Virus record (IMG/VR): IMGVR_UViG_3300022602_000031
Coordinates: 1 to 64,000 of that record
From: a virus
DNA length: 64,000 bases
Strand: one strand, 5' to 3'
The position numbers and the translations under genes were made by a program. Numbering within the stretch: the first letter of the stretch is position 1; each line of letters begins with the position of its first letter. Shown here one piece after another: positions 15,988 to 35,900 of this stretch. Below the pieces are notes generated by a model that searched no databases, was not told where the DNA came from, and worked only from the letters and a program-made list of their open reading frames with translations.

Positions 15988-17835
15988 CTATGAATTTATC
16001 TTTACAATAGCTTCAATTGTACATTCTTCTTCGCTATGCTTGTCAACCAAACTGCGTCCAATGACATTGAATGCTGTAATTTCTGATGTTTTTCCTGCTC
16101 TTGCACGACCTTGCCCGGCACTGACCAAACGATCGCCTTTGGCAACAAACCCAATTACTCTAACTGGAACACGTCCGCTCATTGCTACAGGTGGGTGAGT
16201 TAAATTGTCGCCAGCCCCAGAATTCATCAAATAGGCTGCATTAGTACTTATGACACCAAAAACTTTATCACTTAATTCCTCAACCACTTGAGTAATTTCG
16301 TATAGTCCGCCCATTTCTACAACGGTACCTGGAGCATACTCTGCGTCTGCATGGAAGCGTTCTGCCAAGTCGGCGTATTGTGCGTGAATAGCAGTACCGT
16401 AAATGTTGTTGAACCAATTTGACACACTACCTAGGTTACTTGCTAAGTTAGCACTTGGTGTAACGTTACCAGTTACCACAGTATTGAATACTGTTAGTGT
16501 AGCTGTGTTGTTTAAGAATAGATTTGATGTAACGTTTACGTTTGCGGCATTAACAGTAGGAGATGTAGTAATCGATCTTGATACTAGATTGCCGGCCGCA
16601 ACGTTTGATACTACACTTAAATTAGCGCCAGCGGTAATATTACCAGATGTAATTACCTGGTTAACGATAGCGGCATTGGCATACATACCGTTCCAGAACG
16701 CTGTACTAGAACCTAGGTTAATAACTGCGTTTGATGCCGGAATAATACCAGGACTGACACCAGTTGCTCCAACTGTTACTGTTGTAAATGTTGCTGAACT
16801 TGGTGTGTTAAAACCAATTACTGTGCTGTCTAGGTAACCAAACGTGATACTTGCGTTAGCACCAGTGGTTGCAATTTCTGCGCCATTGTAGTAGGCTCTT
16901 CCATACAAATTGGTTGTACCGTTTGTGCTTAAATTGTAAATGTTACCAAGTTGTGTAATATTTTGTTGTGCGGAAGTTAATAGTGTTCCGTTAAATCCAG
17001 TGCTGGTTGTAATACCACCTGCGGCTGTAATTGTTGTGGCATTTAGTGTGCCAACTGTGGCCAACGTAGCACTAACGTTACCAGTTAACGAACCAGTGAT
17101 ACCACCAGTTGCTGAAATAGGACCAGTAATAGTTGCTGAACTACCAGCAATAGCGCCTGCTTGTATACCACCGTTGTTGTCACGTAATACTAGGTTACCA
17201 GCAAGAGGAGCAACACTTTGATTGCTTAGACCCATAGCCGGAACGTTTGTACTGTTCCAGTTCATACCGGCAACAATAGTGGTAAATCCAGGAGTAACTG
17301 TACTAAAGTTTTCATACGCAAAAATAGCGTAAACTAAACCTTTAATTCTAAATTGAATAATTGTGTGAACCTGACCTGCTGTGTCAGTTAATAAACTAGG
17401 AACTACACCAGAGTCGCCTGTTGCTGTAGTTGCGGCTGGTCCGATTGTAACAAACTTGCTACCGTCATATACTTTTAACTGTCCGTTTGTGTTATCAAAC
17501 CATAAGTCGCCGCCGCCTTTAGTTAAATCAGATGGGGGTGCACTAGCAGGAGCACTTGTAGCACCTGTTGAAATTTTCCAACTTGAGCCAGTGTATACTT
17601 TTAATACATTATTTGTAGTGTCCCACCATAATTGTCCTGCTAAAGGATTACTTGGACTTTGGCTAAACGCAAAGTTCTCTAATAATTTTACAAAGTTATC
17701 GTTTAAAAACTGGCCATAACCAGCGTAATTTTTACCAATTAAAACTAGGCTGGAATGGGTGGTATCTACTGTACCATCGCTAAGACCGCCTGGGATTAAT
17801 GATGTACCAGAGGTTAGGTTAATTGTGTATGACAT
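15988..17835 (-). CDS. Tail fibre with C-terminal intramolecular chaperone (peptidase G2-like)
   Basis: Shared fibre N-terminal domain (LIGKNYAGYG..NFVKLLENFA); C-terminal AQYADLAE..GTVV..GVIS..GRVPV..KGDRL. Confidence 0.7.
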   Translation of the reverse strand: MSYTINLTSGTSLIPGGLSDGTVDTTHSSLVLIGKNYAGYGQFLNDNFVKLLENFAFSQSPSNPLAGQLWWDTTNNVLKVYTGSSWKISTGATSAPASAPPSDLTKGGGDLWFDNTNGQLKVYDGSKFVTIGPAATTATGDSGVVPSLLTDTAGQVHTIIQFRIKGLVYAIFAYENFSTVTPGFTTIVAGMNWNSTNVPAMGLSNQSVAPLAGNLVLRDNNGGIQAGAIAGSSATITGPISATGGITGSLTGNVSATLATVGTLNATTITAAGGITTSTGFNGTLLTSAQQNITQLGNIYNLSTNGTTNLYGRAYYNGAEIATTGANASITFGYLDSTVIGFNTPSSATFTTVTVGATGVSPGIIPASNAVINLGSSTAFWNGMYANAAIVNQVITSGNITAGANLSVVSNVAAGNLVSRSITTSPTVNAANVNVTSNLFLNNTATLTVFNTVVTGNVTPSANLASNLGSVSNWFNNIYGTAIHAQYADLAERFHADAEYAPGTVVEMGGLYEITQVVEELSDKVFGVISTNAAYLMNSGAGDNLTHPPVAMSGRVPVRVIGFVAKGDRLVSAGQGRARAGKTSEITAFNVIGRSLVDKHSEEECTIEAIVKINS

Positions 17836-18408
17836 TTATAGTCCTTGATTGCTTGTTATATTTATGCCTTTTTTAACAATGCCTACACCATCGTATGTTA
17901 GCCACGATACTATTACTTCCCTGGCTTCTGTGCTAGGGGTTGTATAATGGCTGAACATACCATATGGAGGGAAAATTACTACTTTTCCAGCACGTGTTGT
18001 TACCGTTTGGTTTTGTGCTGGAAAAACCAATTCCCCACCATTGTTAATTGTGCTTAAATGAAGAACCACGCTGGCATAGCGTAATTCATTCACACCTGCT
18101 ACTATTTCGCTATCACTGTGTAGTTCGCATACATCGCCGGGTTCGTACAAGTGATATTCGTATCCTGTGTCGCTGTTACCGCTGTAACTGGGTCTGTAAT
18201 ACTCGCGTACAGTTTGCTTAATTTTACCAAAAATTTTGCTGAGTTGGTTGTTAACTTCAGCTAACTCTGGGATTTTACTAATTGTTACAGTAACACCCTG
18301 TCTATGATACTCGTTTGCTTCACCGTAAATGCTTTTAGATTCACGTAATTTGCCGCTTAAATAATTTACAATATCTGGACTAACAAAATTGTCCAACTCT
18401 ATAATCAT
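17836..18408 (-). CDS. 2OG-Fe(II) dioxygenase (prolyl-4-hydroxylase-like)
   Basis: HSD...H facial triad, GGELVFP and terminal R (REVIVSW); start placed at the TAATG overlap at 18406-18410. Confidence 0.85.
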   Translation of the reverse strand: MIIELDNFVSPDIVNYLSGKLRESKSIYGEANEYHRQGVTVTISKIPELAEVNNQLSKIFGKIKQTVREYYRPSYSGNSDTGYEYHLYEPGDVCELHSDSEIVAGVNELRYASVVLHLSTINNGGELVFPAQNQTVTTRAGKVVIFPPYGMFSHYTTPSTEAREVIVSWLTYDGVGIVKKGINITSNQGL

Positions 18409-20366
18409 TAATAGACTTTCTGTAAAAAGCAAAGTGCGTAGTAAGGTGGGCGATTATCAAATGCTGTACCAGCACCAGTTGACGCAGTATTTCCAGAAAT
18501 AGTTAACGAATGTAAGTGGTCATTGGCAGTATTAATGCTGACGCCAATACCAGTGCTAGCAGTTGTTGTATTCCATAATCTTCCACCGCCACTGGCTACA
18601 CTGGTAGCATCGTATCCAAAACTGTCAACTGATGATCCACTCCAGTTAGCACGGCCGGCAGCAAATGCTAGCTGATCGTCACCCGGCATAACGTGTGCGT
18701 GTCCATTGTCAGTTATTGCCACTCCGTGTGAGTGACTACCAGCAGTATTTGTATTGCCAGTTAATGTTACAAAGTGGTTATGGCTTGGTAACATAGCAGT
18801 AGTTAGTGTAGTGGTGTTTTGACCAGCTGAGTCGCCAACATTATAATTGTTTCCAGCGCCTACAATAAATCTATCTTGTAAATCTGGTGTACCACCAGTG
18901 CCATCACATAAATGCCAGCCACTTGGAATATTAGAAACTAAACCGCCCCACATAATAATCATACCAGTTGGCATAACATTATGAACAAAAGCGGTAGTAG
19001 CTACGTTGGCAGTACGATCATTAGTTGCTGGAGTATTTGCAATAGCATTTACTAAGTTTGCTCGAGTAACAACAGGAGTAGTTATTGATACATTTGCTAG
19101 CGTACCGCCGGTGACCTGTGCGTTGCCAGTGCTAAAGTTTGTAATAGTAGCATTACCAGAACCTAAGTTAGTTAAACCAGCGATACTACCACTGCTGATA
19201 CTAATAGAAGTTGTAGTTAAATTTTGGAAGGATGCGGTTGCCGCACTTAAATTAGTAAGGCCATTAACGTTACCGCCGGTGATAAGAGCATTACCAGTAC
19301 TAAAGTTTGTAGCGGTTTCATTTACCGATGTTGCATTTGTTACAGATGAGTTACCACCAGTAATTTGTGCGTTGCCTGTACGTAAATTAGCAACAATTTC
19401 TGTTGTTACGTTAATGGTAGAAAAAGAACCAGTTGTAGCTGAAATGTTAGCAAGGCCTGTTGCTGTGCCTCCTGTGATTACAGCATTGGCTGTACTGAGA
19501 TTTGTAGCTGTTAATGTTAGGGTTGTTACATTTGATACTGTAATATATCCGCCAGCAATCACAGCGTTAGCTGTACTAAAGTTTGTTATTTGCCCACGAC
19601 TACTTTGTACGTTACCAGTCAATGACCCAACTAGTGTAGTTGCTACAACGTTACCAGTTAAGTTACCAACTACGTCACCAGTTAAGTTACCAAACACTGG
19701 TCCAGTTAATGTGCCAGATATAGACTGAGCAACTACGTTACCGGTTAGGGTACCAACAATGTTGGTATTAATCGAAGCAGTCATTGAACTGTTAAATGTA
19801 ATACCAGGTTTTACTAAGGTAAAACCAGATAATCCTGAAGCAGGAGCAAACGTTGGATCTCCGCTGACTGTAGCAATAACTACATTACCATACTGTAGTT
19901 GAAGAATATTATGTACAGTACCTAGCGTATCAACTACCGGAACAGGTACTGCACCGCTGATACCTTGTGCTCTAGTGTATGCTGGCCCAATTAAATTCCA
20001 ATCAGTTCCATCAAACAAATAAAACTGACTTGTACCAGTATTAAACCAAGTATCGCCGGGTTTAGTACCAGCTGGTTGTAGATTACTTACAATAACACCA
20101 GATACTGGAACATATCCAGCACTTGTAAATACGTTTAATGTTTGTTGTTGTGTGTTAAACCAAAGTTGTCCAGGTACATTTTGACCGCCGGGTGCTGTGT
20201 TTCCCGCAAAATTCTCTAGTAGATATACTAAGTTTTGGTTAAGATACTGCCCATAGCCTACATAATTTGGGCCAGGGAAAGTCAGCGAGGTTGAATTGTC
20301 TGCAAACCCGTCGTTAATTGTTTGTATTAATACGTTGCCGTTATAATGATTAATTGTGTATGGCAT
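18408..20366 (-). CDS. Tail fibre with C-terminal tail-collar/tip domain
   Basis: Shared N-terminal domain, low-complexity shaft, and MPTGMIIMWGG..PSGWHLCDGTGGTPDLQDRFIVGAG..PSHNH..PPYYAL. Confidence 0.85.
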   Translation of the reverse strand: MPYTINHYNGNVLIQTINDGFADNSTSLTFPGPNYVGYGQYLNQNLVYLLENFAGNTAPGGQNVPGQLWFNTQQQTLNVFTSAGYVPVSGVIVSNLQPAGTKPGDTWFNTGTSQFYLFDGTDWNLIGPAYTRAQGISGAVPVPVVDTLGTVHNILQLQYGNVVIATVSGDPTFAPASGLSGFTLVKPGITFNSSMTASINTNIVGTLTGNVVAQSISGTLTGPVFGNLTGDVVGNLTGNVVATTLVGSLTGNVQSSRGQITNFSTANAVIAGGYITVSNVTTLTLTATNLSTANAVITGGTATGLANISATTGSFSTINVTTEIVANLRTGNAQITGGNSSVTNATSVNETATNFSTGNALITGGNVNGLTNLSAATASFQNLTTTSISISSGSIAGLTNLGSGNATITNFSTGNAQVTGGTLANVSITTPVVTRANLVNAIANTPATNDRTANVATTAFVHNVMPTGMIIMWGGLVSNIPSGWHLCDGTGGTPDLQDRFIVGAGNNYNVGDSAGQNTTTLTTAMLPSHNHFVTLTGNTNTAGSHSHGVAITDNGHAHVMPGDDQLAFAAGRANWSGSSVDSFGYDATSVASGGGRLWNTTTASTGIGVSINTANDHLHSLTISGNTASTGAGTAFDNRPPYYALCFLQKVY

Positions 20367-20400
20367 ATTTTATTCCGTTATACTGTACTTATCAAAATTA

Positions 20401-20712
20401 TTACTTTGGTACTGTAGTGTAATTTGGGTCTTGTTGTGGCCCCCAATAAATTCTTACTAGCCCCGGCGCACCTGCGCCTCCGCCCCAGTTAAGTGGACCG
20501 GTTCTATCTGTAAATCCTGCTCCACCGCCGCCGGCTCCATAGCCTTGGCCGTCTTTGCCGGTGCTATCCCCAGGGACGCCGCCAGCGCCACCTGTGCCAA
20601 AAGGTGTACTGCCACCTGCACCGCCGGATCCTGAACTGCTATCTCCGCTACCGCCTTGCCCGTCAGCACCTGGGCTGCCGTTTGGGGTTCCACCTGCTCC
20701 ACCGCCTGCCAT
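20401..20712 (-). CDS. Gly-rich 103-aa protein; resembles the C-terminal half of a Gly-rich tail domain
   Basis: MAGGGAGG..STPFGTGG..YGAGGGG..GAPGLVRIYW; ATG lies 1 nt after the upstream TAA. Confidence 0.65.
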   Translation of the reverse strand: MAGGGAGGTPNGSPGADGQGGSGDSSSGSGGAGGSTPFGTGGAGGVPGDSTGKDGQGYGAGGGGAGFTDRTGPLNWGGGAGAPGLVRIYWGPQQDPNYTTVPK

Positions 20713-20713
20713 A

Positions 20714-22480
20714 TTATTTGCCCTTTCCTATTAGTACAATAGCTCTTAATAATACAAATACCGCAATAAGAGCTAGCCCTTTAACAAATCCTGCTGGTTT
20801 ACGTGCTGGCCCAAATATCCGACGCCATACTCCTACAGCATAACTGATTGGTGTACCTACAATCATCAGTGCTAATCCTGTACGATCGTTTTTGTGTGCC
20901 ATCCAATTGGCCCACGGTGTTGCTATTGCCTGTGCCCATCGAGTGGACCACTGTTGTGCCGCTGTGCTAAATTCATCATCTGACATCCAAGGCATCATCT
21001 TAGGACCTTGCCCGTTCATCCAATCAACTACAATTTCAGCCCAGGCACGATATCCGTTATAAATGTCTGGGTAACTTTCAACTAAACGAGCGCCAAACGC
21101 TTGGTCGGCTTCGTAAATATCTTTGGGTAGTAGTCCAAGTTCATAGAGCTTAGTACAGATGATCTTGCCGCCACCACCCCCACCGGTATCTGCGCTGGCT
21201 CCACCGCCGCCTCCACGTCCACCTGTAACCACAATATGTCCGTCTAAACCTGTAATTGCTGTGCTTGAGCCAGGTGCTCCGCCAGGTGCTCCGGTTGTTC
21301 TTCCGACTACTGGTGCTCCACCGCCGCCTTGACCAATAGTAATAGTCAGTTGCTCGCCAGGACTTACTGTCATAGTTTGTCCTTGTACGTAGCCAGCTCC
21401 ACCACCACCGCCTCCAGCATCACCTACACCTACTTCTTCTCCACCTCCGCCGCCACCTCCGCCAGCAACGGCATCTATGGTAACCTGGAAAATTCCAGGT
21501 GGAACTGTAAATGTATAGGTATTAGTAGTGCCAGACAAACTGTTATTAACAGCCTGTACATACTCGGCAGCCTGTATACAACTTATAAAACTATTTTGTT
21601 GTGCTTCATTGCCGCCGTCTAGTGTTGGGTCAAACACGTAATTTAAGAATGTACCAATTGGATCGCTAGAATCAGCTATGTCTACTGGATTTCCATTTTT
21701 ATCAATTACTACTACTGCGCCGGAGCTGAATGCGTTTGGTGCTATAACATTGTTGGCAGTAATAGGATAAGGTGTAACCTGGCTTAGATAAAATAATTGG
21801 TTGGACGCACGAACACTACTTGCGTAATCTAGCTGTCCGGCGTTGGTGTTGTTTACACCTTGTGCTAACTTTGCCGCATCGGCAGGTAAAACCCCAGACA
21901 GGACTCCTTGAGATGTTGTTAAATCTAGTGTACCATCTGGGTTAAATGTAATTTTACCAGTGCTCGGAAAGAATTGTTTCCATTCTCCGTTGATCTTTGT
22001 CCACCCTTGTGCTACTTCAACAAAAGGACCAAACCCGCTTGGGGCGCCTTTGGTTGTAAATATAGATTCTGATGCTGGTGTATCTGTAGTATAAGTATGT
22101 GTCCAGGTATATCCATCAAAAGATATATCCCCGCCACTGAATAAACGTGATGGGCTAACATAACTTATTATTACTTTACCATCAGCACTGGCACCCAAGC
22201 CTGAATCTGTTTCAACACATCCAGACGGTACTAGACTTCCGCCATTACTTCCGCTATAAGCACCATCGTTTTCGCCGTATTGGTTTCCGCCAACACCACC
22301 GCCGTAGCCTCCACCTCCACCACCACCTCCCCCGCCCTGGGGTCCTGTGTTGTGTCCACCACCTCCCCCGCCACCACCACCTCCGTAGATACGGCCGCCT
22401 CCCACTTTAGTCTGGGTAGCACTATCTCCTAGGGGTTCACCTAGAGAATATAATTGGCGTCGGCTATAGTATTGGCTCAT
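20714..22480 (-). CDS. Gly-rich tail-associated protein with N-terminal leader and C-terminal KIICT domain
   Basis: Leader MSQYYSRRQLYSLGEPLGDS..GGRIY-G10, Gly-rich segments and GGGGGG-KIICTKLY domain (20714-21166). Confidence 0.7.
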   Translation of the reverse strand: MSQYYSRRQLYSLGEPLGDSATQTKVGGGRIYGGGGGGGGGGHNTGPQGGGGGGGGGGYGGGVGGNQYGENDGAYSGSNGGSLVPSGCVETDSGLGASADGKVIISYVSPSRLFSGGDISFDGYTWTHTYTTDTPASESIFTTKGAPSGFGPFVEVAQGWTKINGEWKQFFPSTGKITFNPDGTLDLTTSQGVLSGVLPADAAKLAQGVNNTNAGQLDYASSVRASNQLFYLSQVTPYPITANNVIAPNAFSSGAVVVIDKNGNPVDIADSSDPIGTFLNYVFDPTLDGGNEAQQNSFISCIQAAEYVQAVNNSLSGTTNTYTFTVPPGIFQVTIDAVAGGGGGGGGEEVGVGDAGGGGGGAGYVQGQTMTVSPGEQLTITIGQGGGGAPVVGRTTGAPGGAPGSSTAITGLDGHIVVTGGRGGGGGASADTGGGGGGKIICTKLYELGLLPKDIYEADQAFGARLVESYPDIYNGYRAWAEIVVDWMNGQGPKMMPWMSDDEFSTAAQQWSTRWAQAIATPWANWMAHKNDRTGLALMIVGTPISYAVGVWRRIFGPARKPAGFVKGLALIAVFVLLRAIVLIGKGK

Positions 22481-22911
22481 AATTTAGTTTCTACAACAAT
22501 TCCTCGTTCACGGTATCCAAACATTCTGGCATATCGCGCCATACTTTTTCTAACAAACCCTTGTATTTTAGTAGCACCATATGATTTTAATATACGTTCT
22601 AATTGAGCATTTGTAGCAGGGTTGCTAACTAAGTGCCCACCTATATAAGTCATAAATGCTACCTTATCGTTGGGATATTCAATAAAAGTAAATGTTGCGG
22701 CTCCGTGTATTTCCTTATTTTCATCTTCTGCTATTAGCAGTATCCATCTATCTGTTACTATCAATTCTAATTTAATCTGCTCAATAGTATGATCACCATA
22801 CCCCCAAGGTTGAGCTCGACCAATGTATTCCTCTACTTTAGGCCATAACGCTGTTAGCTCTGGCCCAATGACTCGGCGTACTGTTAGGCCTGTGATTGGT
22901 TTGTTTTCCAT
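22477..22911 (-). CDS. GNAT-like acyltransferase
   Basis: 144-aa alpha/beta pattern (W.LLIAED..IHGAATF..VAFMTYIGG..YGATKIQG..R..GY) resembling phage GNATs that precede internal virion proteins. Confidence 0.55.
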   Translation of the reverse strand: MENKPITGLTVRRVIGPELTALWPKVEEYIGRAQPWGYGDHTIEQIKLELIVTDRWILLIAEDENKEIHGAATFTFIEYPNDKVAFMTYIGGHLVSNPATNAQLERILKSYGATKIQGFVRKSMARYARMFGYRERGIVVETKL

Positions 22912-23102
22912 GCTTCAAAATTAGCAATAACTGGATGAGCAATATTTCTATCTTGACCGCTGATATGTAGTAACAAAGGTAAATTTGGCATTAACTTTAA
23001 CATTAATCCAGTATTGTTTACCAGTATGTTGTACAGTTGATCGCGTTCAGCATCACTTAAACTATTGATAACCTGTTCACTTAAACTATCTATTGTATAC
23101 AT
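22884..23102 (-). CDS. Hypothetical protein, 72 aa
   Basis: Translationally coupled ORF with the motif HISGQDR..HPV..FEAWK. Confidence 0.6.
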   Translation of the reverse strand: MYTIDSLSEQVINSLSDAERDQLYNILVNNTGLMLKLMPNLPLLLHISGQDRNIAHPVIANFEAWKTNQSQA

Positions 23103-23103
23103 T

Positions 23104-24129
23104 TTATTTTCCTAACAATTTTCCAATGGTTACTACAGTTCGTAGTAGCGTAAATACACCAATTAAGGCTAGCCCTTTAACAAATCCAGCTGGCTTTTTG
23201 CTGGCACCAAATACTCGACGCCATACACCTACCCCGTAACTAATTGGAGTACCAACTACCATTAAGGCAAATCCAGTACGGCTGTTGCGATTAGCCATCC
23301 AATTGGCCCAAGGAGTTGCTATTGCCTGTGCCCACCGAGTGGACCAGTTAATTTGTGCCTGCCGACGTTGCTCTGTGTCACGTATCCAGAACATCATTTG
23401 TGGGCCATCACCCGACATCCAATCGACTACTATTTCTGCCCAAGCTCTATAGCCATTATATACATCTGGGTAACGTTCAACTAAGCGAGCACCAAATGCT
23501 TGGTCTGCCGCATAAATGTCTTCAGGCAATAATCCCAACTGATATAGTTTGGTACAGATGATCTTGCCACCACCGCCACCCCCAACATATTGATTACCAC
23601 CAGATGTTTTGTCTTGTCCGGGTAATCCATATTGGTGTCCGTCGCTAGTATAGCCTTGATTTGCTCGACCATCAGAGCTGGCTCCGCCGCCACCTCCACC
23701 TCCGCCGCCTCCGGCAACGATTTTTAATTGTTTGTTTAGCAATAGTACGGTTGCTCCACCACCACCGCCTCCAGAGTTACCACCACCGGATCCAGCCGAT
23801 CCACCATTGGCTCCATTGAATCCTAGATTGTTTGCGCCACCACTGCCACCTCCAGCTCCGGCGCCTCCTGAACCTGCTCCGCCACCTGCGCCAATAGCTA
23901 CAGTAATTTGATCGCTATAGCCTAGTGTAAGATTGCCAGTGACCTGACGCCCGTTATAACCAGGGTATCCATTGCCGCCACCAGATCCACCACTGCCGCC
24001 AATAATTGTAACGCTAACAACAACAGTATTACCAGTATTACTGGCCAGTGGATTATTGTGGTCGGCTACCCTCGGAGTAGTTTCGACCCAAAGTCCGTTC
24101 TTTTTAACAAATATTCCACGTCCGTACAT
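23104..24129 (-). CDS. Gly-rich tail-associated protein with C-terminal KIICT domain
   Basis: Gly-rich domain that breaks off at GQDKTSGG.., then GGGGGG-KIICTKLY domain (23104-23565). Confidence 0.7.
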   Translation of the reverse strand: MYGRGIFVKKNGLWVETTPRVADHNNPLASNTGNTVVVSVTIIGGSGGSGGGNGYPGYNGRQVTGNLTLGYSDQITVAIGAGGGAGSGGAGAGGGSGGANNLGFNGANGGSAGSGGGNSGGGGGGATVLLLNKQLKIVAGGGGGGGGGGASSDGRANQGYTSDGHQYGLPGQDKTSGGNQYVGGGGGGKIICTKLYQLGLLPEDIYAADQAFGARLVERYPDVYNGYRAWAEIVVDWMSGDGPQMMFWIRDTEQRRQAQINWSTRWAQAIATPWANWMANRNSRTGFALMVVGTPISYGVGVWRRVFGASKKPAGFVKGLALIGVFTLLRTVVTIGKLLGK

Positions 24130-24132
24130 GAC

Positions 24133-26205
24133 TTAGCTTACTTGGAACCAGAAGTCGCCATCATTACCACCGCTTGGTGGCTGGCTACTTACTGTATAGT
24201 TGAATTTCTGACCCTGGATACTTTGAGCAACATAGGCTGTAGTTGCTATGCGTGTTGTACTATCTCCACTTAGTGGTGTTCCAACATTTGACTGCCAGGT
24301 TAAACTTGACAGCGTAGGAGCTGCCGCGTTGCCTGTTAGTGTTGGACTGTCAATGTTTGCTTTGAGAGCATTTAACTGTGCTATTTGTGTATTCAAATAG
24401 TTTGTTAATGTAGTTACACGATTAACATAATCGCCATAGACTAAATTTGCTGTAGCATCAACATAAGCCGTAGTAGCGATGTTAGCACTATTATCACCAA
24501 GTCCAGGATATTGTAAACCTGTACTGTATAATTGTATGCCAGTAATCGCGTTGTTTAAATTAATGCCGTTAACAGCCATTATACTTGGCTGTGCTACGTT
24601 TAATGATCCACTTACTACAGATACATTAACTTGGGTAGCACCATTTACCGCATCTTGAACAGCAAAATTAGCTGTGGTATGTGTTCGGCCTGTGTACAAA
24701 TATTGAATATTGTTGGGGTCAATGTAACTAAATGAATTAGCGTAGACATTACCGTAGACAATATAACTATTACCTGTAGCTGTATTTTCAATCAAACTGT
24801 TTAGTGAATAGTTTGTATTTGGTTGCCAGGTTTGGGCAACTAATATCTGTGTTAGGTAATCGCCTTCGTTGAATACACCCGATGGACTTTCTAGAGTAAT
24901 TACGTATTCACTGCCTTGTAGACTAGAAATATAATTGTTCATAGTCTGTACGTTTGGTGCTGTTGGTATGCCAGTAAACGCAGGGCTATCAGTAGTTGCC
25001 AAATATGACAAATAATTATCTATAGAATTGATTTCAGTCTGTACAATGCCAAATTCAATATTGGCAAAATTAAATCTAGAATCAGTTGAAGAACTTAATG
25101 TAGAAACATTTGAATTAATCAATGCCTGTGCGGTTGTAAGGTTAGCTGTTGCTTGAGCAATAATAACCTGTAGCTCTGAGCCAATGCTAGTTGAAAAATC
25201 TGATAATGTATTATTAACCTGTCCAGTTAATGTTGTAACATTGGCATTGATACCAGATTGAATACTGTCAACATAATTTTTAGTAGCAATACCTTTTGAT
25301 GTTACAGGATCACCATAAACAGTTGCTAAACCAGTTACACCATCAATGTGTAAAGTATTGATATTGCCCAGGCCTGAATTTACATAAAAATTAACATTGC
25401 CTTGGTAAGCGTTGTTGTGTACAGCAATATTATTGTTACTAGTAAAGCGTATGTTAGCGTAACCAAATGTAATGTTTCCTGCAACACTAATGTCTGACGC
25501 AAACGCATTATATTGATCTCTGCGAGCAAATTGTGCAGGAGTGATGTTGGCCAATAAAGTACTGTTGGTAGCAGTACCATTATATAAACTATTATTGTTT
25601 GTGTTAAGATTAATTCCTGGCTTGATAGTTGTAAAACCAGCAATAGGAGTTAATGGAGTAAAAGTAGAATCGTAATTTGTAACACTAATTAAATTGCCAC
25701 TACTGTAGGCATTTACTACGACATGGTATATACCAGCTGGATCTAATATTGTTTCTACAAAACTACCGCTCTTGCCATAGGTAGAGCTAGCCTGCGGGCC
25801 AATCAACTGCCACTGAGTACCGTCCCAGGTATTAAGTTGGTTGTTGACGTTGTCGTACCATTGATCACCGGCGTGTAGTGTGATGTTGCCGGATGCTAGT
25901 GGAGCAGAACTAGCAATAATGCGTCCTGTTGAATAATTCCAATTGGAGCCATCATATACACGCAGTACCTGATTGGTAGTATCATACCAAACTGTACCTG
26001 TTTGTGTGTTTAATGCCGCTACTGTCTGACTAGGCGGTAGCGTGTCGGCAAAGTTTTCTAATAGACGAACAAAGTTTTGATTTTGTGCGTCGCCGTAAGA
26101 TGGGGTATTGCGGCCAATAAGATTAACGCCGGTACTGGAATCAATGTATCCATCGCCTAGGTTAATTAATACGGTTCCGTCTGTTCTGGTTAAGTTATAG
26201 GCCAT
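24133..26205 (-). CDS. Tail fibre/baseplate-attached structural protein
   Basis: Third copy of the shared N-terminal domain (LIGRNTPSYG..NFVRLLENFA), a coiled segment and C-terminal PSGGNDGDFW. Confidence 0.7.
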   Translation of the reverse strand: MAYNLTRTDGTVLINLGDGYIDSSTGVNLIGRNTPSYGDAQNQNFVRLLENFADTLPPSQTVAALNTQTGTVWYDTTNQVLRVYDGSNWNYSTGRIIASSAPLASGNITLHAGDQWYDNVNNQLNTWDGTQWQLIGPQASSTYGKSGSFVETILDPAGIYHVVVNAYSSGNLISVTNYDSTFTPLTPIAGFTTIKPGINLNTNNNSLYNGTATNSTLLANITPAQFARRDQYNAFASDISVAGNITFGYANIRFTSNNNIAVHNNAYQGNVNFYVNSGLGNINTLHIDGVTGLATVYGDPVTSKGIATKNYVDSIQSGINANVTTLTGQVNNTLSDFSTSIGSELQVIIAQATANLTTAQALINSNVSTLSSSTDSRFNFANIEFGIVQTEINSIDNYLSYLATTDSPAFTGIPTAPNVQTMNNYISSLQGSEYVITLESPSGVFNEGDYLTQILVAQTWQPNTNYSLNSLIENTATGNSYIVYGNVYANSFSYIDPNNIQYLYTGRTHTTANFAVQDAVNGATQVNVSVVSGSLNVAQPSIMAVNGINLNNAITGIQLYSTGLQYPGLGDNSANIATTAYVDATANLVYGDYVNRVTTLTNYLNTQIAQLNALKANIDSPTLTGNAAAPTLSSLTWQSNVGTPLSGDSTTRIATTAYVAQSIQGQKFNYTVSSQPPSGGNDGDFWFQVS

Positions 26206-26211
26206 ATTCTA

Positions 26212-26910
26212 TTATCCGTTTGAACTTAAATTTGTTAAGGTTTGAATACGCACGGTGTAATCGATTTGAATTAAGCGGTTTAGTGCTTTTTGTACAGGGT
26301 GAAAAATTACGTGTGTTAATAGCAAACCAGTTGATGTTAGTCCGCTTGTATCATCAGTACTACGACCGCGTAGGCCTAGTTCATCAAATACATACTCGCT
26401 GTTTAGACTTTGGCTGTTATCAAACAAACTTTGGCCACTTGGCTCACCGTAGTCCAACAAGCAACTAACTAAAATATCTGTGTAAACTGTACCGGGAATA
26501 TGTGTTACAGTCATTTTATTGTTTAAAGGGTTAAGATTATTAACCGCAGTATCATCAACAATCTTACTATAGGTTGGATTGTATAAGTTACTATTTTGTC
26601 CAATGGTATTGGTGGGCAAATAGGTAATAATACCAGTGGTATCTACACTAGTGCCGCCGTTACCAAAGTTCATTTCATAGATAAAATTCTGCCCTTTATT
26701 GGCAATACTGCTGGCCAACGCAACACTAAGATTTTCATAGTGAATAGCGTTTGATTTATCTACAAAAACTTCATTGGTTTCTGGATCAAAAATCTTAATG
26801 TGCCCACGAGCATATATTCCTGACTGCTCATCTGGCTTCTTTTGTGTATTTTCCACTGTTTCTTCCTTTAAATCTTGATGTTGATTATTATTGTATTCAG
26901 TATTTATCAT
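26212..26910 (-). CDS. Virion structural protein (true start possibly GTG at 26856)
   Basis: 232-aa ORF between baseplate and fibre genes; a late-promoter motif overlaps the listed ATG, and an SD-like AAGGAAG precedes the GTG. Confidence 0.6.
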   Translation of the reverse strand: MINTEYNNNQHQDLKEETVENTQKKPDEQSGIYARGHIKIFDPETNEVFVDKSNAIHYENLSVALASSIANKGQNFIYEMNFGNGGTSVDTTGIITYLPTNTIGQNSNLYNPTYSKIVDDTAVNNLNPLNNKMTVTHIPGTVYTDILVSCLLDYGEPSGQSLFDNSQSLNSEYVFDELGLRGRSTDDTSGLTSTGLLLTHVIFHPVQKALNRLIQIDYTVRIQTLTNLSSNG

Positions 26911-29900
26911 GGGGTTGTTCCTGGTACTGGAGTAAATCCTCTGCTGGCTTTTAAGAAGTTGGCCTGTGGTGTTGCGCTATTAATTAAACCTCTTCCATTT
27001 GTTGCTGTAACTGGGCCTGGGGTGTACCAGGTACGTGTGCTGGTAATTGTCGAATTTGCTTTAACTGCGGCATAACCAGTGATGTCAACTTCTCCCAATA
27101 TTGAAGCACTACGTACAAAACTGTAGGCATTTATAGGTATTGGTTGATTTGGGCCCTGAATGTACAACGCACCGGGTGTGTTATCAAAAGCTTCAACGTC
27201 AAATCCAGTACCATCAAAAATTTCTGGTAAGTTAGTGATACTACCATTTGTAATTACAATTGGTATTATGGTTGAATTACTGATTGTATCCATTGCTCGC
27301 ATAGTTACACTGGTAATTGTGTTTCCAGCAAAAGCAAATGATACATTACCTGATGTTAAAATCTTTTCAAACTTACTGTGCCCTGTTGCTACGTTAGCAA
27401 TAATGTTGGCAAAGTTGCTGGCATAGACATTACCAGTTGTTAGATAGGTAACATTACCATTACTGATAAATGTTGCGTTGGCAAATACAGTATTTGGCGT
27501 CCAAGGTACTGTTGGGATCAGAATGTTACCAGTAGTCAAATAAGTACTGCCGTTATAGTAAACATATCTATTTGATTCGTAGTCTGCGTCAGTCCAAGGA
27601 TCAATAGTAACTTTTTGTGTTAAAATATCTCCAACGTTGGCACTAATTGGCGCTGTTAATTTTAAAGCAAACGTAATAGCACTTGAATCTGTTACTTTGT
27701 AGCTGGTATTTGATGTTAGTTTTGTTTGTATTTCAAATATACCCGGGATTGCCTGATCAACACTGGCATCAATAGCAAGACTACCGGCAGCATGAACAGT
27801 CTGTGGACTTGTGCCGTCTACTGCACGACGTAATTGTGTAATAGTATTAAAATTAGTAACACGGCTAGTATTTGCTTGAATGTTAGCCCAGTTTCCATAA
27901 ATGTCGTAGATATTACCAGTAGTCACGTAAGTGTTGCTGTTGTGGCTAACCAATTCACCCACTGAAATATTTAAATTAGCCTGCCAGGTAAATGGAGTTT
28001 CTAATGCGTAGTTTCTCCAGTAAACAATTTTTTCTCCGTTAACAAATATCACGCCTGGAATATTTAATTGTCTGTCAGGCAAAGGCAATTTGGTAGCATC
28101 ATTGACCTGTATAGCTGTATCTGTTAGTGCCAAAGATCTAGTTAATGTCACAGAATTGTTTGAAGCAATTCTGTAATAGTTAACTGATTGATTCATATTG
28201 TTAAAAATACGATATGATAATGCATCTTTGTCGTATACTGTTAGATTTAAACTATCATACATACGACCTGGAACTAATTCTTGAGGTGCGTGTGTGCTGA
28301 ATGTACTAATGTAAGCACCGCCGTCAATGTTAATATCGCCAGGATTTACTCCTACACTATCTGTAAACGCACTTTGTACAACAGCATCGTACTCTGTGCC
28401 AACATAGGTATTGCCATCGACTATAACCCCTGGATAGCTCATACCATCTGTTGTTGTAGTTAGATCAATATTTCCATTGAACGCAATAATACGGTCATTG
28501 GCGTTGTTAAAATCTCCAGCCTTAAGTGGTATTAAGTTTACAATTGGTAAAGCAAGACTGCTGGTTACACTATAAGCACGTTGTCCTGCCACTGACAAAT
28601 TAGCATTGGCCTGGATACTTGAAAATACAGGACCCTCGACATTACCAGTTACAGTATAGGTGTTGCCATTATAGTAAATTAATGTACCAACGTTGGCCGC
28701 TGTATTGGCCTGCCAATCGGTTACAGTTAATTTGTATAAATCTTCACCGTTTACAACAATAGTATTAGCCAAAATAACATTGTTAGCACTGACCTGATCC
28801 CAGAATACAAAAGTGTTGGCATTTGTATACGTGGTACGATCAAACTTTATAGTTGTTCCAATGCTACGAACTAGGTTATATGAATTAGCTGTAAATCCAG
28901 TATAGACGTTGCGTAAGATTGGGCTAGCAACTGCGCCAGTTCCTGACCCATTGATTGTGATATTTGGAGTAGTAGTTAAACCAGTACCAGGAGTTGTTAC
29001 AATAATTTCTCCGACACCACCTACACCATTTAATACAGCATAGGCATTGGCATTTGGGATTACTGGAGATTTTGGATCATCGGAATATCTTAGAACAATC
29101 TGTGGTGGGAAAATATAATTTTGTCCTGGGTTATCAACTGTAATTCCAACTAGGCTATAGCTGTGATTGTTGGCCCAAGATTGGTATTGGCCATTGTTGC
29201 TGAGTAATCCATCGTCATATGATTGTTCACCACTTGGACTGCGATACACACCAAGCGAGGCGTCCCAATATGCTGGCAAGTCAAAGTCTGTGACATCGCC
29301 TGAGTATTGATCGTTGCCTAGATAGTCAACAACAAACTCACGTAAAATTGTTCGGTAAGGCTTAACTTCGTTGATGTATTGCTGATAATAAGTTTGATTG
29401 TCCGCAATATAGCTAGGGAATTGTTCAAGTTTACGTAAGTACTGTGTAGCACTTAAGAAACTGGTTTTAAATACCCAATCAAGATTTTTTTGTTCTGTCA
29501 ACGCATATTTGATCATTGAGAAGAAAATTTGATTTCCGTCTGCTGATAAATCATCGATGAATATTTCGTCTTTTAACGCAATTAGAATTTGACGCAATTC
29601 AGGACCAGGAATAGAACCTGTACTAATCTGAATAGTTCCGTTTTCTATACCAACAAGAGTTTTATTCAAACTGCTGTCAACGTAGTAGATTTCAAATAGT
29701 CCATCGCCAGCATCATTTACCTTGACATAGGTGTTTGGTGTCAGTGTAATTTTACCTAGATCAAGCGTGGTAGCAACTGTTATATTTGGAGCCACAGTCG
29801 AATCGTAGCCAGTAGCATACCAGTTTATGTAGTGCCAGTAAATTCCTAGGCCGTTACTGTCTACTGCATTTGTTTTATATTTCTGTGTGCGGCCTAGAAC

Positions 29901-32900
29901 CCAGGTTGTGCCAGTCCAGGTATAGATTGCCCATTTACTATTTTGTGTAGTATCGCTTACAACTAATGCACTGTCGCCTGTTGATAATTGTGTGGTATCA
30001 ACATAAGTTAATTCTGTATTGTCAGCTACACTAACAACATATTGCCCCGAACTAGAATTAGGTGCGGCCTCGCTACTGTTTAATGTGGTTAGAACTTTAC
30101 GACGTGTAACCTGATATACTGCCAATTTGGTGTTGACAATATCAATATAATTTGCCAGTGCTGTAGTTCTGTTAACAAATACACTTTGGCGTGGGCGTAT
30201 ATTAATACCATATGCCTGTGCCGCAGTTAAGTTTGGATCAGGAACTACGTTGCCAGCTGAATCAATACCAGCTAGACTATCTGTAATTTTGTTCTGGATT
30301 GTGCGAGGTAATACGCTACTTGGATTGCCTTCTTGTACTAGTGCGTATTCGCTGTGTATCAATCCTGCGTCAACGGCACGGCTTGATAGATGCAGTACGC
30401 TGTTTGTTCCAACCAATCGATTGGTAACATTGTACAATGCTACTGCGTCGTTGCGTAGTACAGTAGAATACGCAACACCTTGGCTAAATGGATTTTCAAT
30501 AGCGGCCGCAATACTGTAAACGCTATTTTGTTTTCCAGCGGCTGTGTTAATTGTTGATTTGTTTAATACCCAGAAGTAATATTTTATTTTAACATTACCG
30601 GCCTGATCAACATAACCATATGTAGAGTAATAGCTATCGTCTGGATACAAAGGTGTGCCGTCGGTACTGGACATAGCATATTGACTTGGCAACATTGAAC
30701 TTTCTACCCACTCGTAGACTAAAATTTCACTGCCTGGAAAACGTTCACCCCAATGATTTAGTCTGTAGTCTAGAGTATCTTGCTCGTAGTCTATGTATCG
30801 TACAGCATCAAGGTTCCACCAAATTTTTCCAACCTGATCCGGTCCCCAGTGGTAATCTGTGCTAGTTCCTTGTCCGGCATTGTAGATAGCCGGATCTTCT
30901 ACACGTTGATAGTCGATGTCAGCGGCTACAGCATTTAGTACTTTGCCTTTTAACGGATCAACATAGTCAATAGTAGTTAAAATATTATTGTCTTTTTTAT
31001 TGTAGATAAACGTACGATTAATACTATTAATATCAACTTTAAGTTCTTGACAACGTGTTAGTGTCCAGCCAATGCTGGAATCTGGATTTGCGTACACGTG
31101 TACTTCTCCAGCATTGGCCAAAGAAGATACTGTTGTACCGGGTGCGCCAGCAACTACCAAAGTACGGGAAGCAAACACACCTGTGCCAAATTGGTCTCCG
31201 GCGTGTAGTTGACTGCTTAGTTCTTGTATATAAGTGTACTTGCCTAAATCGTTTGGAGTACCATAATCAAATACTGGCTCAAATGTATAAACGGTGCCGC
31301 TGTTGAGTATGAAATCAATAAACTTAGTGCTCTGTGCGTCAATGACTGTAGTGTTGTTGTCAAACGTAGTATCTTCTTCGCCAGTACTACCTGAACTACC
31401 AACTGCTAATACCTGCCCATCACTGCTGACACTCATACTAGTGCCAAGCGAGCCAATGGCTTCATTAGGATGAACAATGTTTGAATTAAACACGTATTGT
31501 CCACCAGTGTATACCCAACGTTCGACTAAGCCGTCGGCACTTTTGCTGATAGTACTGTAAGGTACACCAACAAATAAATTACCGCCGGTAGCATCTACAG
31601 CAAGGCTAGTACCAAATCCAGCATTAGAATTTTTGTATTGGCTAGTAATTGTTTGTGCGACTCCAAATGCTGTTCCATTGAATGAGTAGATATAGACATT
31701 ACCATTTTGTACGTATCCATTATTGTCAGTAGGTGCGCCAACAAATAATCGATCGCCACAGGCAGTTGTTGCGATACTAGCCACATTGGCTGTTACTTTT
31801 GCTCGCCAAGACCAATGGTTAGTCTGTAGGTTGCCTGCAAATGCGTGTACTGATCGTGTAGTAGGATCTGACACATATAATACATTACCTAGGCTATTAA
31901 AGGCGACCTGGCTACCAAAGGCAACATTTGCGTTTGGTGAGTGTAGTGTTTGTACGCTACTGATTCCGTTGCTGGTTGAGTAGATATGTACTGTGCTAGC
32001 ACCAGGGGCACCAACTGCTATCAAATTACCGGCTGTGGCAATACTGGTACCAAATTTTGAATCAGTGTTGGCTATTGTTCCAACAGCAGTATAACTGCCA
32101 GCAGAGTTAGCAAATATTTGTACAGAGTTTGATCCAGGAGCGCCAACATAAATTTTGTTTAGGTCTGGACTAGCCGCAACTGTTGATCCAAGTAAGGCAT
32201 TACTTGACGCAGAGTTAGCTGTTAATCTTTGTACGCTGTTTGCCGCCCAAGGACGGTTAAATGTATAAACACCCCATCCAATGTCGGTAGCATTATTAAC
32301 CCATACGTGCTCGTTGGCTATAAAGTCATTGATTGGACGTACACTTTCAACATCTTTAATACTGTCAATTACGTAAGATGTTAGTGTGTAGACCTGTCCA
32401 GAACCATAGGCAGGGCTTACGCTAATTAGATATCCCAACTTGGTTTTATCTTGTATCTGTATAGTAATGCTTAACTGATTTGGTATAGCAGTAACCTGGT
32501 ATATACCATCCCAGTGCGGATTAAAGTTTTTAACTATAACAAACTCACCAACACTAAATGAGTGCGGATTGTTGAAAGTAAGTCTTGCATAGTTGTCTAG
32601 AGAATATGTCAACTGTGTTGCTAATAAGTTTGTTTCGCTGACACGATATACGTTCCAGGCTTTATTAACATCCTTGGCTACCCAAATTTTATTGCCTGCT
32701 ACTAGATTAAACACCTGACCATAATTAATTACATCAAAGATAGTGCCGTCAATGTCGTTGACGTTTACGTATCCTGCGTAAGGCATATCGTTTATATAAA
32801 CAGAATTAAGTTCTCTGTTAGAGTATATGCTGGTACTTGTACTTTGAATGTTACTTGAGTTATAGACATTTGATGTTACAGTATTTCCTGTAACTGCTAA

Positions 32901-35900
32901 ATTAACAACTATATTAGTAGGATCATAGTTGTCGGTTAATAATAAGCTAACTGGGTTAGTAGTGAATACACTTTGATCTAAAACTACTTCGGTAAATTTA
33001 TTATTGTCAATGTCGCCATAAGTACCAGAACGGAATGCCCATTCTTCATAGATACTGATGTTACCGGTTACGTTGTTAAAACTAGCACGAGTCAAGGCGT
33101 CAATACTATTCTTAGTACCTTTTTGTCGGATGTAGCCTTGATAGAACTTGGTTTGATTAGAGATGTTTACACCCAGGTCTGTCAAATATGAACGCTCGCG
33201 GAATCCTAGTAATCCAGCACTGAACTTTTGTAACATCTCATCTTGTGGCGGATTATCAATATCATAAATCTGTTCAAACACTTTGGCATTAGTACCAAAA
33301 CTTGGCAACAGTCCAGTCTGAATATTGCTTGATTTAATTTGTGTCCAATTGCCTGCGCCGAATAACTGACTGGCTGGAATATCTACCGCGGCCAGGAAAT
33401 AATTATTGTTAAATTTAACAATGTCTCCTAGTTTATAGTCAACACCTTCACTCCAATTTGATATCACTGGATTACTATAAACATAACCCGGCGCAGTTAG
33501 TCCGCCGTTCCAGTTACCAGTAATGGATCCTTTAATACCCAAACGATATTGACGGTTACCTAACTTAGGAACATATATAATATCACCAAAGTCATCTACG
33601 TTGTCAAATATTAATACGTGTTCGAGTTGTACTAGATTAAATTTACCATAGGCAATATTACTTCCATCAACAGTCGAAACCACTGTTTGATTTAATGTTG
33701 GAGTTTTAGAAGCTCTAACAATGTTAAATCTGTTGCTCTTAATAGGTACAAAATTTTGATCAAGTAAACGGCTACCGCCTGGTAGATTTGTAATTTCATC
33801 TACTACAGAATACGTAGAATTTAAAGTGATAGTATCAACAACTGGATTCAATACAATAATTGATCCAGTTGGGAAACCTTGCTGTATCCAATAGGCAAAT
33901 TCTTGTGCGCTTAGTTTAAAATCTCTTTGTAATTGTAAATCTTGATCGTATTGGTCAAATACAAATCCAGCACTACGTAAATATCTTTCGTAGCTGATTA
34001 AAAAATCTACTACCTGTTGGCTAGTTGAAAATACAGTTCCGTAAGGAATATTAATTGATGTTGCCTGAGCATCTTTGTAAAAATTAAGAGTGCTGTCATT
34101 TACAGAAATTGTAGTTTTATTATTATTAGCAATACTTGGTGTAATAGTAAAAAACGGTGTAGTGGTATCATATCCTTTTACCATGTATCCAGTACTGGTT
34201 TTTTCAACCAACACCGCACTATAATTTACAGTGGTTGTAGTATTAGATTTGTTTAAGTAGACCTGATAGTTTTCATCTGGTATCAATACTGACGCATTTG
34301 TGCTACCGGGACTTGTTTGTTCTGCTGTTACACTAATTAATTTTTGATCAGTAAATCCAGCTGTTCTATAGGCCAATTGAACCGATAAGTTACTAAAATA
34401 GTCGTTGAGTTTAGTTACTGGATCAATACCCAAGTTCTTAATACTGTCGGCTATCCAATTGATATATCCGCTAGTACGCAATACGGTGCCAGATGTTGTG
34501 TCGCCATTAACTGCTAGTAAACTAGGATTAATTTTTTGATTATTAACGTTGCTTATATGCCCAGTCACTGGATTTACATAGAACCGGCTAATATCAAGTT
34601 GTGTGCCAAAGTATTCAGCTGGTTTGCTTAGAGCCAGTGCTACCTGTAGAGCATACGGGAAGTCACTGCTACGGCGCCAGGCCGTTTCAACTGGTCCTTG
34701 TTGTCCTACCGCATAGTCGCCGGCGGCGTCTCGAGTATTGTACTGTGTAGACAATGGAATATCTGTTGGTGGCAATAAATTACCATTGCGGTCCACTGGT
34801 ATAAATTTTGTTAGACCCGGACGAGCAAAACGTAGGTCTGTGTAATCATTGCCGTTGCCGCCGTTCCATACATAACCGGCTGCCAGGTCTTCCCACAATG
34901 TGGTATTGCCATTGGTATACGGCGCAGGACCATAATGTTCTTCCCACCAGGTTGGTTTTGAAGAAAGCCCTAACATTTCCCAAGGTGTCAAATCAGGAGT
35001 ATCTGTATCAAACCAATATTCGTATATTGCTCTCCAGCTACCCTGCAGTGGCGATCCATCGACTACATCAGAGAATCCTATTGCGTAGTTCCAGGTCCAA
35101 GGATTGTCTTGTTGATACCAACTGTTACTTGTATAATCTAAATTGTTATTGCCGACCCAACTCAAGAAATTCTGGCTTAATAATTTTGTTATACTTTCTA
35201 TAGTATATTCAGTTTTACGAAAACGACCAGGTATAATATCATAGAAGTCAATGATATTATTATTGTTGTCGGCTTTGATATTATTATAGATACGACGTTC
35301 AAGTTCTAGTAGATACTGGTCCCTGAAGTCACCAAACGCCGGGGTAATCGAGCCATCGTGGCCGCGAATAACCGACTGTGCAGTTTGATATGTGATGTCG
35401 GTATAAATTTCCGGTACGTACTTTGGAAATAATCCCAACTTAGTTGGTGTTTCAGGAATATAGTTACCGTCGGTAGTTGAGTAGTCACGTAAGGTAATTG
35501 TATCGTTGTTTTGTAGTGCAGTTAAAAATGTAATAGCTGGACTATTTAAACTAAACTCATAGTCTACCCCAACTGTTAATTGAGTGGTTACTCCAGCTCT
35601 AGTTAAATAAACTAGTATCGCACGATTACTTAATTCAGTATTGTTAAAAATTGTACTGATTTCATATTTGGTCTGACGAGAGTTTAATACGGTGTAGGTA
35701 ATTGTAGTATAGTTCTCGCCTTGTGGTACCATATCACTATAATACCAAGGATAGCTGTTATTTTTAATACTATTGATATTGGCTAAAATTGTGTCTACAC
35801 CAGACACTGGATCTTTATAATCAATGGTAGTTAATGTACCGCATAAACTTAAAAATTTATTTTTAAATTTAGTGTATTCTTTTCTTGCCAAATCAACTGC

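Follow-up and report, generated by a model that had tools for sequence, protein, structure and literature searches.

The window analysed here, 64,000 nucleotides (nt) of DNA, is part of a 180-kb IMG/VR virus record (IMGVR_UViG_3300022602_000031) whose completeness is estimated at about half. The source is lake water; several studies of freshwater metagenomes contain near-identical contigs. On its minus strand lies a tail module with a protein of 3952 amino acids (aa), three genes for fibre-like proteins whose N-termini are related, a 2OG-Fe(II) oxygenase gene, and the five open reading frames (ORFs) that are the subject of this work. In order, these are A (23104-24129, 341 aa), a 72-aa ORF (22884..23102), a 144-aa ORF (22477..22911) that shares bases with the 72-aa ORF and with the beginning of B, then B (20714-22480, 588 aa) and C (20401..20712, 103 aa), all on the minus strand. 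Two glycine-rich adhesin domains are spread collinearly over A, B and C, and the breaks between the pieces are real. Each of A and B ends, stop codon included, in a copy of a domain that we call KIICT (23104..23565 in A and 20714..21166 in B). Joints between the ORFs are of the form TAA-n-ATG (TAA-A-ATG between A and the 72-aa ORF) or are ATGA overlaps, and the coordinates, strand and translational coupling proposed in an initial annotation of this DNA, made from its letters alone, therefore hold. Independent lake-metagenome contigs cover C, the junction of B and C and most of B, as well as the region from the start of B to the KIICT domain of A, with zero differences. Because independent assemblies match both junction regions in this way, an assembly artefact is excluded.

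Residues 1-188 of A (23566..24129), the host part preceding its KIICT domain, form the first and larger part of a glycine-rich domain and end with GQDKTSGGNQYVGGGGGG. B opens with a leader (residues 1-32, 22385..22480; MSQYYSRRQLYSLGEPLGDSATQTKVGGGRIY), followed by G10 tracts and the terminal part of A's glycine-rich domain (residues 33-110, 22151..22384; ..DGKVIISY), a piece that is also present in the B' protein of locus L011. A middle part that is not glycine-rich (residues 111-318, 21527..22150) then leads to the first half of a second glycine-rich domain, PF21722 or Gly_rich_2 (residues 319-438, 21167..21526), after which the second KIICT copy follows. The second half of this PF21722-type domain is found in C (MAGGGAGG...GAPGLVRIYW).

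That two continuous glycine-rich domains are distributed over A, B and C had been proposed in the initial annotation, and collinear matches to phrog_863 and to two uninterrupted proteins substantiate it. Residues 198-438 of B, which include the later part of its middle region, match positions 292-518 of the phrog_863 profile, and residues 3-90 of C match positions 518-603 (E 7e-9), contiguous with B. Residues 319-438 of B cover positions 3-111 of the 226 positions of PF21722 with 26.9-27.4 bits (curated cut-off 24.3). C alone gave no Pfam match, and B plus C belong to PF21722 in that B scores above the cut-off and C supplies the remaining profile via phrog_863 and P0158. The search for uninterrupted homologues suggested by the annotation yielded P0158, which spans the middle of B and C, and P0002, which spans A and the start of B. 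In P0158, a metagenomic protein of 480 aa, PF21722 positions 1-225 lie within one chain. Local alignments scored against composition-preserving shuffles match residues 307-437 of B to its residues 267-400 (z 16.7) and residues 3-90 of C to its residues 398-480 (z 13.1). In P0002, a single chain of 662 aa, residues 2-177 correspond to residues 8-188 of A (z 13.4) and residues 134-264 to residues 33-132 of B (z 9.0), the latter directly after the A-like part and unbroken. The host part of A also aligns with P0071 (z 18.0). With composition-adjusted BLASTP, the scores of P0158 with B and C were weak or not significant, and shuffle-controlled alignment was used instead; a MAFFT placement of the end of the B piece was wrong and was not used. 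A word-based search of C against longer proteins gave no match, as glycine words swamp the signal. No close relatives of the B middle were found in IMG/VR or in cultured phages, and blastn of the whole region against cultured phages returned only a 90-nt match at chance level.

The position of the break differs among phages. It follows the first glycine tract in the L003 type (leaving a second half of 148 aa); A-type domains are interrupted at ..DKTSGG, B-type domains at PF21722 position 111 and P0002 at position 31. Glycine-rich domains of Pam3 gp24, S16 gp38 and ALK/LTK have been described as a TNF-like sandwich with strands extending into a glycine-rich hairpin lattice and with variable receptor-binding tips (PMC9608196). 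B plus C host a domain of this kind (PF21722). However, the known examples are single chains, whereas here the domain is divided between two chains and a foreign domain occupies the break, and we infer that a TNF-like glycine-rich fold could be completed by a second chain.

The family to which an exhaustive HMMER search (E<=1e-3) assigned KIICT comprises 412 clusters, the majority from uncultured aquatic phages, and in every match listed the domain sits at the extreme C-terminus of its host protein (150-1859 aa). Among 128 representative proteins it is preceded by poly-Gly in 62%, and otherwise by poly-Pro, Arg runs, Cys-rich or hydrophobic stretches; the residue in front of I-I-C is Lys in 113 and Ser in 15. 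The Cys at residue 4 is invariant in the alignments and adjoined by a near-invariant Thr-Lys, and no His is found among the invariant or near-invariant columns. Short Asn-Cys-rich cores (..NCNCS/KIICT) precede 24 of 63 distinct KIICT domains (L001, L013-L053), with one or two ORFs of the partner family described below located downstream. An AlphaFold2 model built from 46 sequences, calculated for the copy in B, is an all-alpha six-helix bundle with no strand and a mean predicted local distance difference test (pLDDT) score of 93. Its last helix is hydrophobic in 90% of the members and might serve as a membrane anchor, although it carries a conserved basic residue and is packed into the bundle by AlphaFold2. 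Foldseek against the PDB found no relative, and the best rows of a wide VIA-align search (SlrP, Z 6.1; SspH1, Z 5.9; IpaH, Z 4.1) are below the level that the tool regards as meaningful for helical bundles. Matches in BFVD and the ESM Atlas are confined to unnamed proteins from uncultured phages, Pfam, NCBIfam and PHROGs hold no model for the domain, and tblastn among 50,697 cultured-phage records gave one match.

The two KIICT copies of the window have a protein identity of 78% and a DNA identity of 72%; the DNA similarity runs from the GGN tract just before AAG-ATC-ATC-TGT to the stop/ATG. As stated in the initial annotation, they differ largely at synonymous sites, with a ratio of non-synonymous to synonymous divergence (dN/dS) of 0.084 and a synonymous divergence (dS) of about 2, and they appear to be old paralogues under strong constraint. 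Genomic context was drawn from 80 IMG/VR loci. Two of these, L035 and L037, have unrelated host genes; their nucleotide identity, about 85%, is confined to the stretch that starts at the KIIC junction and finishes with the small ORF that follows, the flanks being at random level. Another contig, L084 (267 kb), is syntenic with the window and shows the same order of A, a 73-aa ORF, a 145-aa ORF, B and C. Between the window and L084, protein identity and dN/dS are 61% and 0.26 for the host part of A, 80% and 0.08 for its KIICT domain, 49% and 0.30 for the 72-aa ORF, 75% and 0.15 for the 144-aa ORF, 65% and 0.17 for the host part of B, 37% and 0.32 for its KIICT domain, and 71% and 0.14 for C, ratios which indicate that every piece is under purifying selection. 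The drop from 65% in the host part of B to 37% in its KIICT domain indicates that the cassette at the break between B and C was replaced in one lineage with the break being kept, L084 having another subtype of KIICT there.

In a quick maximum-likelihood tree of KIICT, copies from the same genome pair with each other (96 for the window and 98 for L008), and domains from orthologous host positions fall in three separate places; judged by this topology, the KIICT tree is decoupled from the host genes. The break in the host part of A is identical in its L011 and L084 orthologues, and L011, L084 and the P0152 contig possess orthologous splits between A, B and C, the accessory ORFs in the gaps being different. 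Old DNA insertions into GGN tracts had been set aside in the initial annotation and are now better supported by transfer between genes, by replacement at the same break and by the decoupled tree. These DNA comparisons show a cassette behaving as a unit that moves between genes. Apparent cassette-less joints in the lake contigs were rejected as cross-matches, as all of them had sides of 20-27 nt inside GGN tracts.

Splitting by KIICT is also found in the giant tail protein family DUF4815/phrog_358, which is unrelated to the glycine-rich hosts. The N-terminal pieces end at profile positions 1291-1415 (776 of phrog_877) and continue into KIICT, and the next ORF resumes phrog_358 at positions 1422-1424 (779 of phrog_877) within its first ten residues. 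Such splits are present in L069, L002, L066, L037 and L080, on contigs whose gene order is unlike that of the window. An equivalent split of the glycine-rich type is carried by the cultured Synechococcus phage SynMITS9220M01 (L083, MT408532.1, 3669-7103) in gp028, gp029 and gp030, all annotated as hypothetical. There, gp028 consists of an A-type glycine-rich domain, a P33R8 linker (33 Pro and 8 Arg) and a KIICT-family domain starting with SIICK, gp029 is a type-2 partner of 113 aa, and gp030 starts with MAKAGGGGGG and carries the end of the domain.

The small ORFs that follow KIICT fall into two types. A family that includes the 72-aa ORF of the window (type 1) begins at the stop codon of 34 of 58 distinct KIICT genes, and a type-2 family of 109-140 aa directly follows four more, giving 38 of 58. 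Type-2 members are found at L011:6167-6580, L028:4507-4929, L068:4453-4782, L038:1261-1587 and L083:5519-5860, and those of L011 and L028 have several Cys near the N-terminus. In L035 (4508-5848) the small ORF, which is 61 aa long in the near-identical L037 cassette, forms the N-terminus of a 446-aa ORF and may be fused to the downstream piece. Neither the 72-aa nor the type-2 ORFs matched a known family, no conserved Cys, His or acidic motif is present in the 72-aa type, and no homing endonuclease match was obtained for KIICT, the 72-aa ORF or the type-2 partner in Pfam, PHROGs or NCBIfam. The 72-aa ORF is the sole partner copy in this genome record, in which the window holds two KIICT copies.

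The 144-aa ORF had been called a GNAT in the initial annotation. It has no Pfam match by sequence; its AlphaFold2 model (pLDDT 82) supports a GNAT fold, with 343 Foldseek matches in the PDB at E<=1e-3, and all the matches listed are GNAT-type acetyl- or acyltransferases (NatD, Naa50, RimJ, SpeG). The gene is present in L084 and the P0152 contig and absent in L011. The 32-residue leader of B (MSxYYSRxxLYxLGEPxG..GRIY) is conserved in P0151-P0153 and L084, is absent in L011 and has no counterpart in the uninterrupted P0002. Leader and GNAT gene thus co-occur, the gene lying just upstream, and both are missing in L011; they may represent an enzyme-substrate or docking pair.

Elsewhere in the tail module, all on the minus strand, the 2OG-Fe(II) oxygenase gene (PF13640; window 17836-18432) lies between two fibre genes and occupies the same place in L084 and the P0152 contig. 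From this conserved placement, a fibre protein may be the substrate that its product modifies. A weak, sub-threshold match to the autoproteolytic chaperone domain Peptidase_G2 (E 0.005) lies in the C-terminal part of a fibre-like protein (window 15988-17835). The ORF for the 3952-aa protein (window 26907-38765), located upstream of the fibre genes, has a 3941-aa counterpart in L084.

In some relatives a true Hint domain, resembling a mini-intein, is located exactly between linker and KIICT, namely in P0117, P0002, P0071, P0078 and P0079 and in locus L065 (around 3500-4000). Because the Hint domain of P0117 has a canonical His-Asn followed by a +1 Cys, this protein should splice, leaving KIICT attached. 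The others have a non-nucleophilic Lys at +1, and at most cleavage is expected from them. The Hint domains of P0002 and L065 are very similar by eye and their host proteins differ. In our reading, these domains are inteins that home to the place where the DNA of the cassette is most conserved, and for the question of KIICT removal they constitute weak and two-sided evidence.

On balance we lean towards a model in which a recombining cassette leaves tail genes in pieces, the separately translated fragments reassemble non-covalently and KIICT acts as an assembly or anchoring domain. The cassette would consist of a flexible linker, the 150-residue all-alpha KIICT domain with its stop codon and, often, a small coupled partner ORF, and recombination would have placed it in a tail adhesin gene, within glycine tracts coded by GGN. 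With each insertion, the upstream frame would end with KIICT and the downstream remainder would be re-initiated through translational coupling, A, B and C being made as three polypeptides. The split TNF-like/polyglycine-II domains would then re-form non-covalently, one from A and the start of B and the other from the middle of B and C, linking the three proteins into a single tail-tip assembly. KIICT, the partner ORF and the B leader would be cassette-derived elements for assembly, docking or anchoring, comparable to the tails of Aeh1 NrdA. KIICT might be removed later, and peptide ligation would be unnecessary.

The closest documented case is nrdA of the Aeromonas phage Aeh1, in which the mobE insertion has left element-derived tails on both halves of the protein that are essential for enzyme assembly without splicing (Crona et al. 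2011; PMC3045599). Both systems have a phage gene cut in two by an inserted element, with the halves being translated separately. By contrast, the Aeh1 insert is a free-standing homing endonuclease and its tails are short, whereas here a folded domain of 150 aa is fused in frame to the upstream half with no recognisable nuclease; KIICT also recurs in many genes and at several positions, and its targets are tail proteins rather than an enzyme.

Several observations weigh against this model. A purely non-covalent assembly leaves the invariant Cys, which directly follows the linker, without a role, and the function of KIICT is deduced solely from position and context. No mobility enzyme was found, and the term cassette rests on sequence patterns only. 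Some KIICT genes (L005, L010, L055-62) seem to end complete proteins with no downstream remainder and 20 of 58 have no recognisable partner ORF, indicating that KIICT is not only a marker of breaks. Furthermore, the inteins at the junction in some relatives mean that protein-level processing does occur in this neighbourhood.

A doubtful alternative is that KIICT nucleates folding or oligomerisation, perhaps helped by the partner ORF, and then removes itself by a cut at K-I-I-C, the fragments staying together non-covalently. Endosialidases and phage fibres have an autocleaving C-terminal chaperone domain, Peptidase_S74. Like chaperones of that type, KIICT makes up roughly the last 150 aa of tail and fibre proteins, being extreme in position in every match listed, held behind a flexible linker and equipped with a nucleophile-like residue near its start, the invariant Cys with its adjoining Thr-Lys. 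Cleavage-only Hint domains in front of KIICT (+1 Lys in all five representatives and L065 except P0117) would also fit a domain that is dispensable in the mature protein. However, splicing by the canonical P0117 intein (+1 Cys) would retain KIICT. There is no Peptidase_S74 match in A or B in Pfam, nor any other peptidase match, and the Cys-Thr-Lys at residues 4-6 is a resemblance only, where that family would have a Ser-Lys dyad at its cleavage site. The nucleophile would be Cys instead of Ser and lacks a conserved His or Ser partner, KIICT resembles no solved fold and interrupts domains rather than ending complete fibres, and its cleavage has never been observed.

It is unlikely, in our judgement, that KIICT and the small ORF form a selfish or toxin-immunity-like cassette, spreading on its own account or as an addiction pair, which replaces the 3' ends of tail genes, with the downstream pieces acting alone or not at all and no domain being re-formed. 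A two-gene unit transferred between unrelated host genes, a Hint domain before the C-terminal module in some members with a small ORF directly after it, and a last helix whose hydrophobicity in 90% of the members is compatible with membrane activity are what this explanation can draw upon. The same features recall Rhs/CdiA toxin-immunity cassettes, where a C-terminal module moves together with a small downstream gene, a Hint domain is occasionally present and the old 3' end remains downstream. The pattern of conservation, however, is the opposite of that of polymorphic toxins, since the C-terminal module is constant and the N-terminal hosts vary. The displaced ends are also translated and under selection: downstream pieces retain start codons, coupling and strong purifying selection at near-saturated dS (dN/dS 0.14 for C), and the breaks are exact, with no loss and no duplication. 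Two KIICT copies in the window with one partner ORF do not fit a toxin-immunity pair, and there is no evidence of toxicity.

Covalent stitching, the chemistry favoured in the initial annotation, seems to us more unlikely still. The Cys would form a thioester with the preceding residue that is resolved by the amine at the N-terminus of the following fragment, possibly once the leader has been removed, joining A, B and C and releasing KIICT. Such a reaction would assign a role to the Cys that is invariant where the inserted domain starts, and it would suit the location of KIICT, which in two or more unrelated families lies exactly where an otherwise continuous domain is broken. The top structural neighbours, although insignificant, are NEL ubiquitin-ligase domains with a thioester-forming Cys (Z 6.1 and 5.9); they are under the stated noise level of the tool for helical bundles and are probably noise. 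A Hint- or sortase-like mechanism is not borne out by an all-alpha domain (pLDDT 93) with no conserved His and with no signature of Hint, sortase or peptidase. Hint domains are all-beta horseshoes and sortases are beta-barrels with a TLxTC motif. No Hint-family Pfam match was obtained in A or B at E<=0.1, whereas true Hint domains were picked up before KIICT in P0002, and no sortase match was obtained in the five ORFs with Pfam or NCBIfam, the donors ending in oligoGly-KIIC and not in LPXTG. An intein would have its nucleophile as the first residue, a conserved Thr-x-x-His block and a C-terminal His-Asn followed by Cys, Ser or Thr; in KIICT the Cys comes fourth, after K-I-I, a stop codon closes the domain, and the first residues of C are MAGGG. 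There is also no room at the acceptor N-termini for a C-intein of about 35 aa, as C aligns with P0158 from residue 3 and the C-terminal pieces of phrog_358 match their profile already from residue 6-7.

Nor do the ends of the fragments have a constant form. The acceptors had been described as starting with oligo-Gly, and those of the window do have a small residue after Met and then Gly runs, as ligation would favour; B, however, has its conserved 32-aa leader, and acceptors elsewhere start with MASEFDLAQ.. (phrog_358) or MAITDYYGG.. (L003 type). Likewise, the description of donors as ending in oligoGly-KIIC applies to the window, but linkers elsewhere can be long, and after ligation G10-KII, P6G10 or P33R8 would remain inside a domain. 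Many KIICT proteins have no downstream acceptor, and the adjacent GNAT resembles N-terminal acetyltransferases, which, if acting on B, would block an amine rather than free one. Genes fractured by split inteins, reported in 2009 mostly from phage and metagenomic loci (PMC2677866), offer the same layout of an N-terminal part with an appended domain, a small ORF and a C-terminal part with an exact break. However, KIICT is all-alpha and not a Hint half, its acceptors carry no C-intein and the intervening ORF has no endonuclease motif; because all three are missing from the KIICT loci, trans-splicing is not indicated.

Barely credible, finally, is removal of the cassette by an intron, ribosomal bypassing or DNA excision before or during translation to give one continuous protein: the insert ORF is in frame with the upstream part, as in some intron ORFs, and phages of this kind do carry introns and a bypass element, but no Rfam match was found at E<=1 on either strand of 19500-25000, the insert between B and C is wholly coding under constraint (saturated synonymous change, dN/dS 0.08) and therefore leaves no room for a ribozyme core, the acceptors' own start codons are conserved in another frame, and the lake metagenome contigs contain no credible cassette-less joint.

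The receptor-binding tips of tails set the host range of phages. KIICT, a widespread and so far unnamed domain, marks breaks of tail adhesins and of a giant tail protein into separately translated pieces and, by the comparisons above, is transferred as a unit from gene to gene. Should the pieces reassemble as in the model towards which we lean, tail tips would be built and re-shuffled in nature, and repeatedly, by split-domain complementation, and the single precedent of Aeh1 NrdA would be extended to structural proteins. Were the Cys catalytic, KIICT would represent new protein chemistry, and if stitching were true, a natural protein-ligation system unrelated to inteins and sortases. With gp028-030 of SynMITS9220M01 the question becomes directly testable in a cultured phage.

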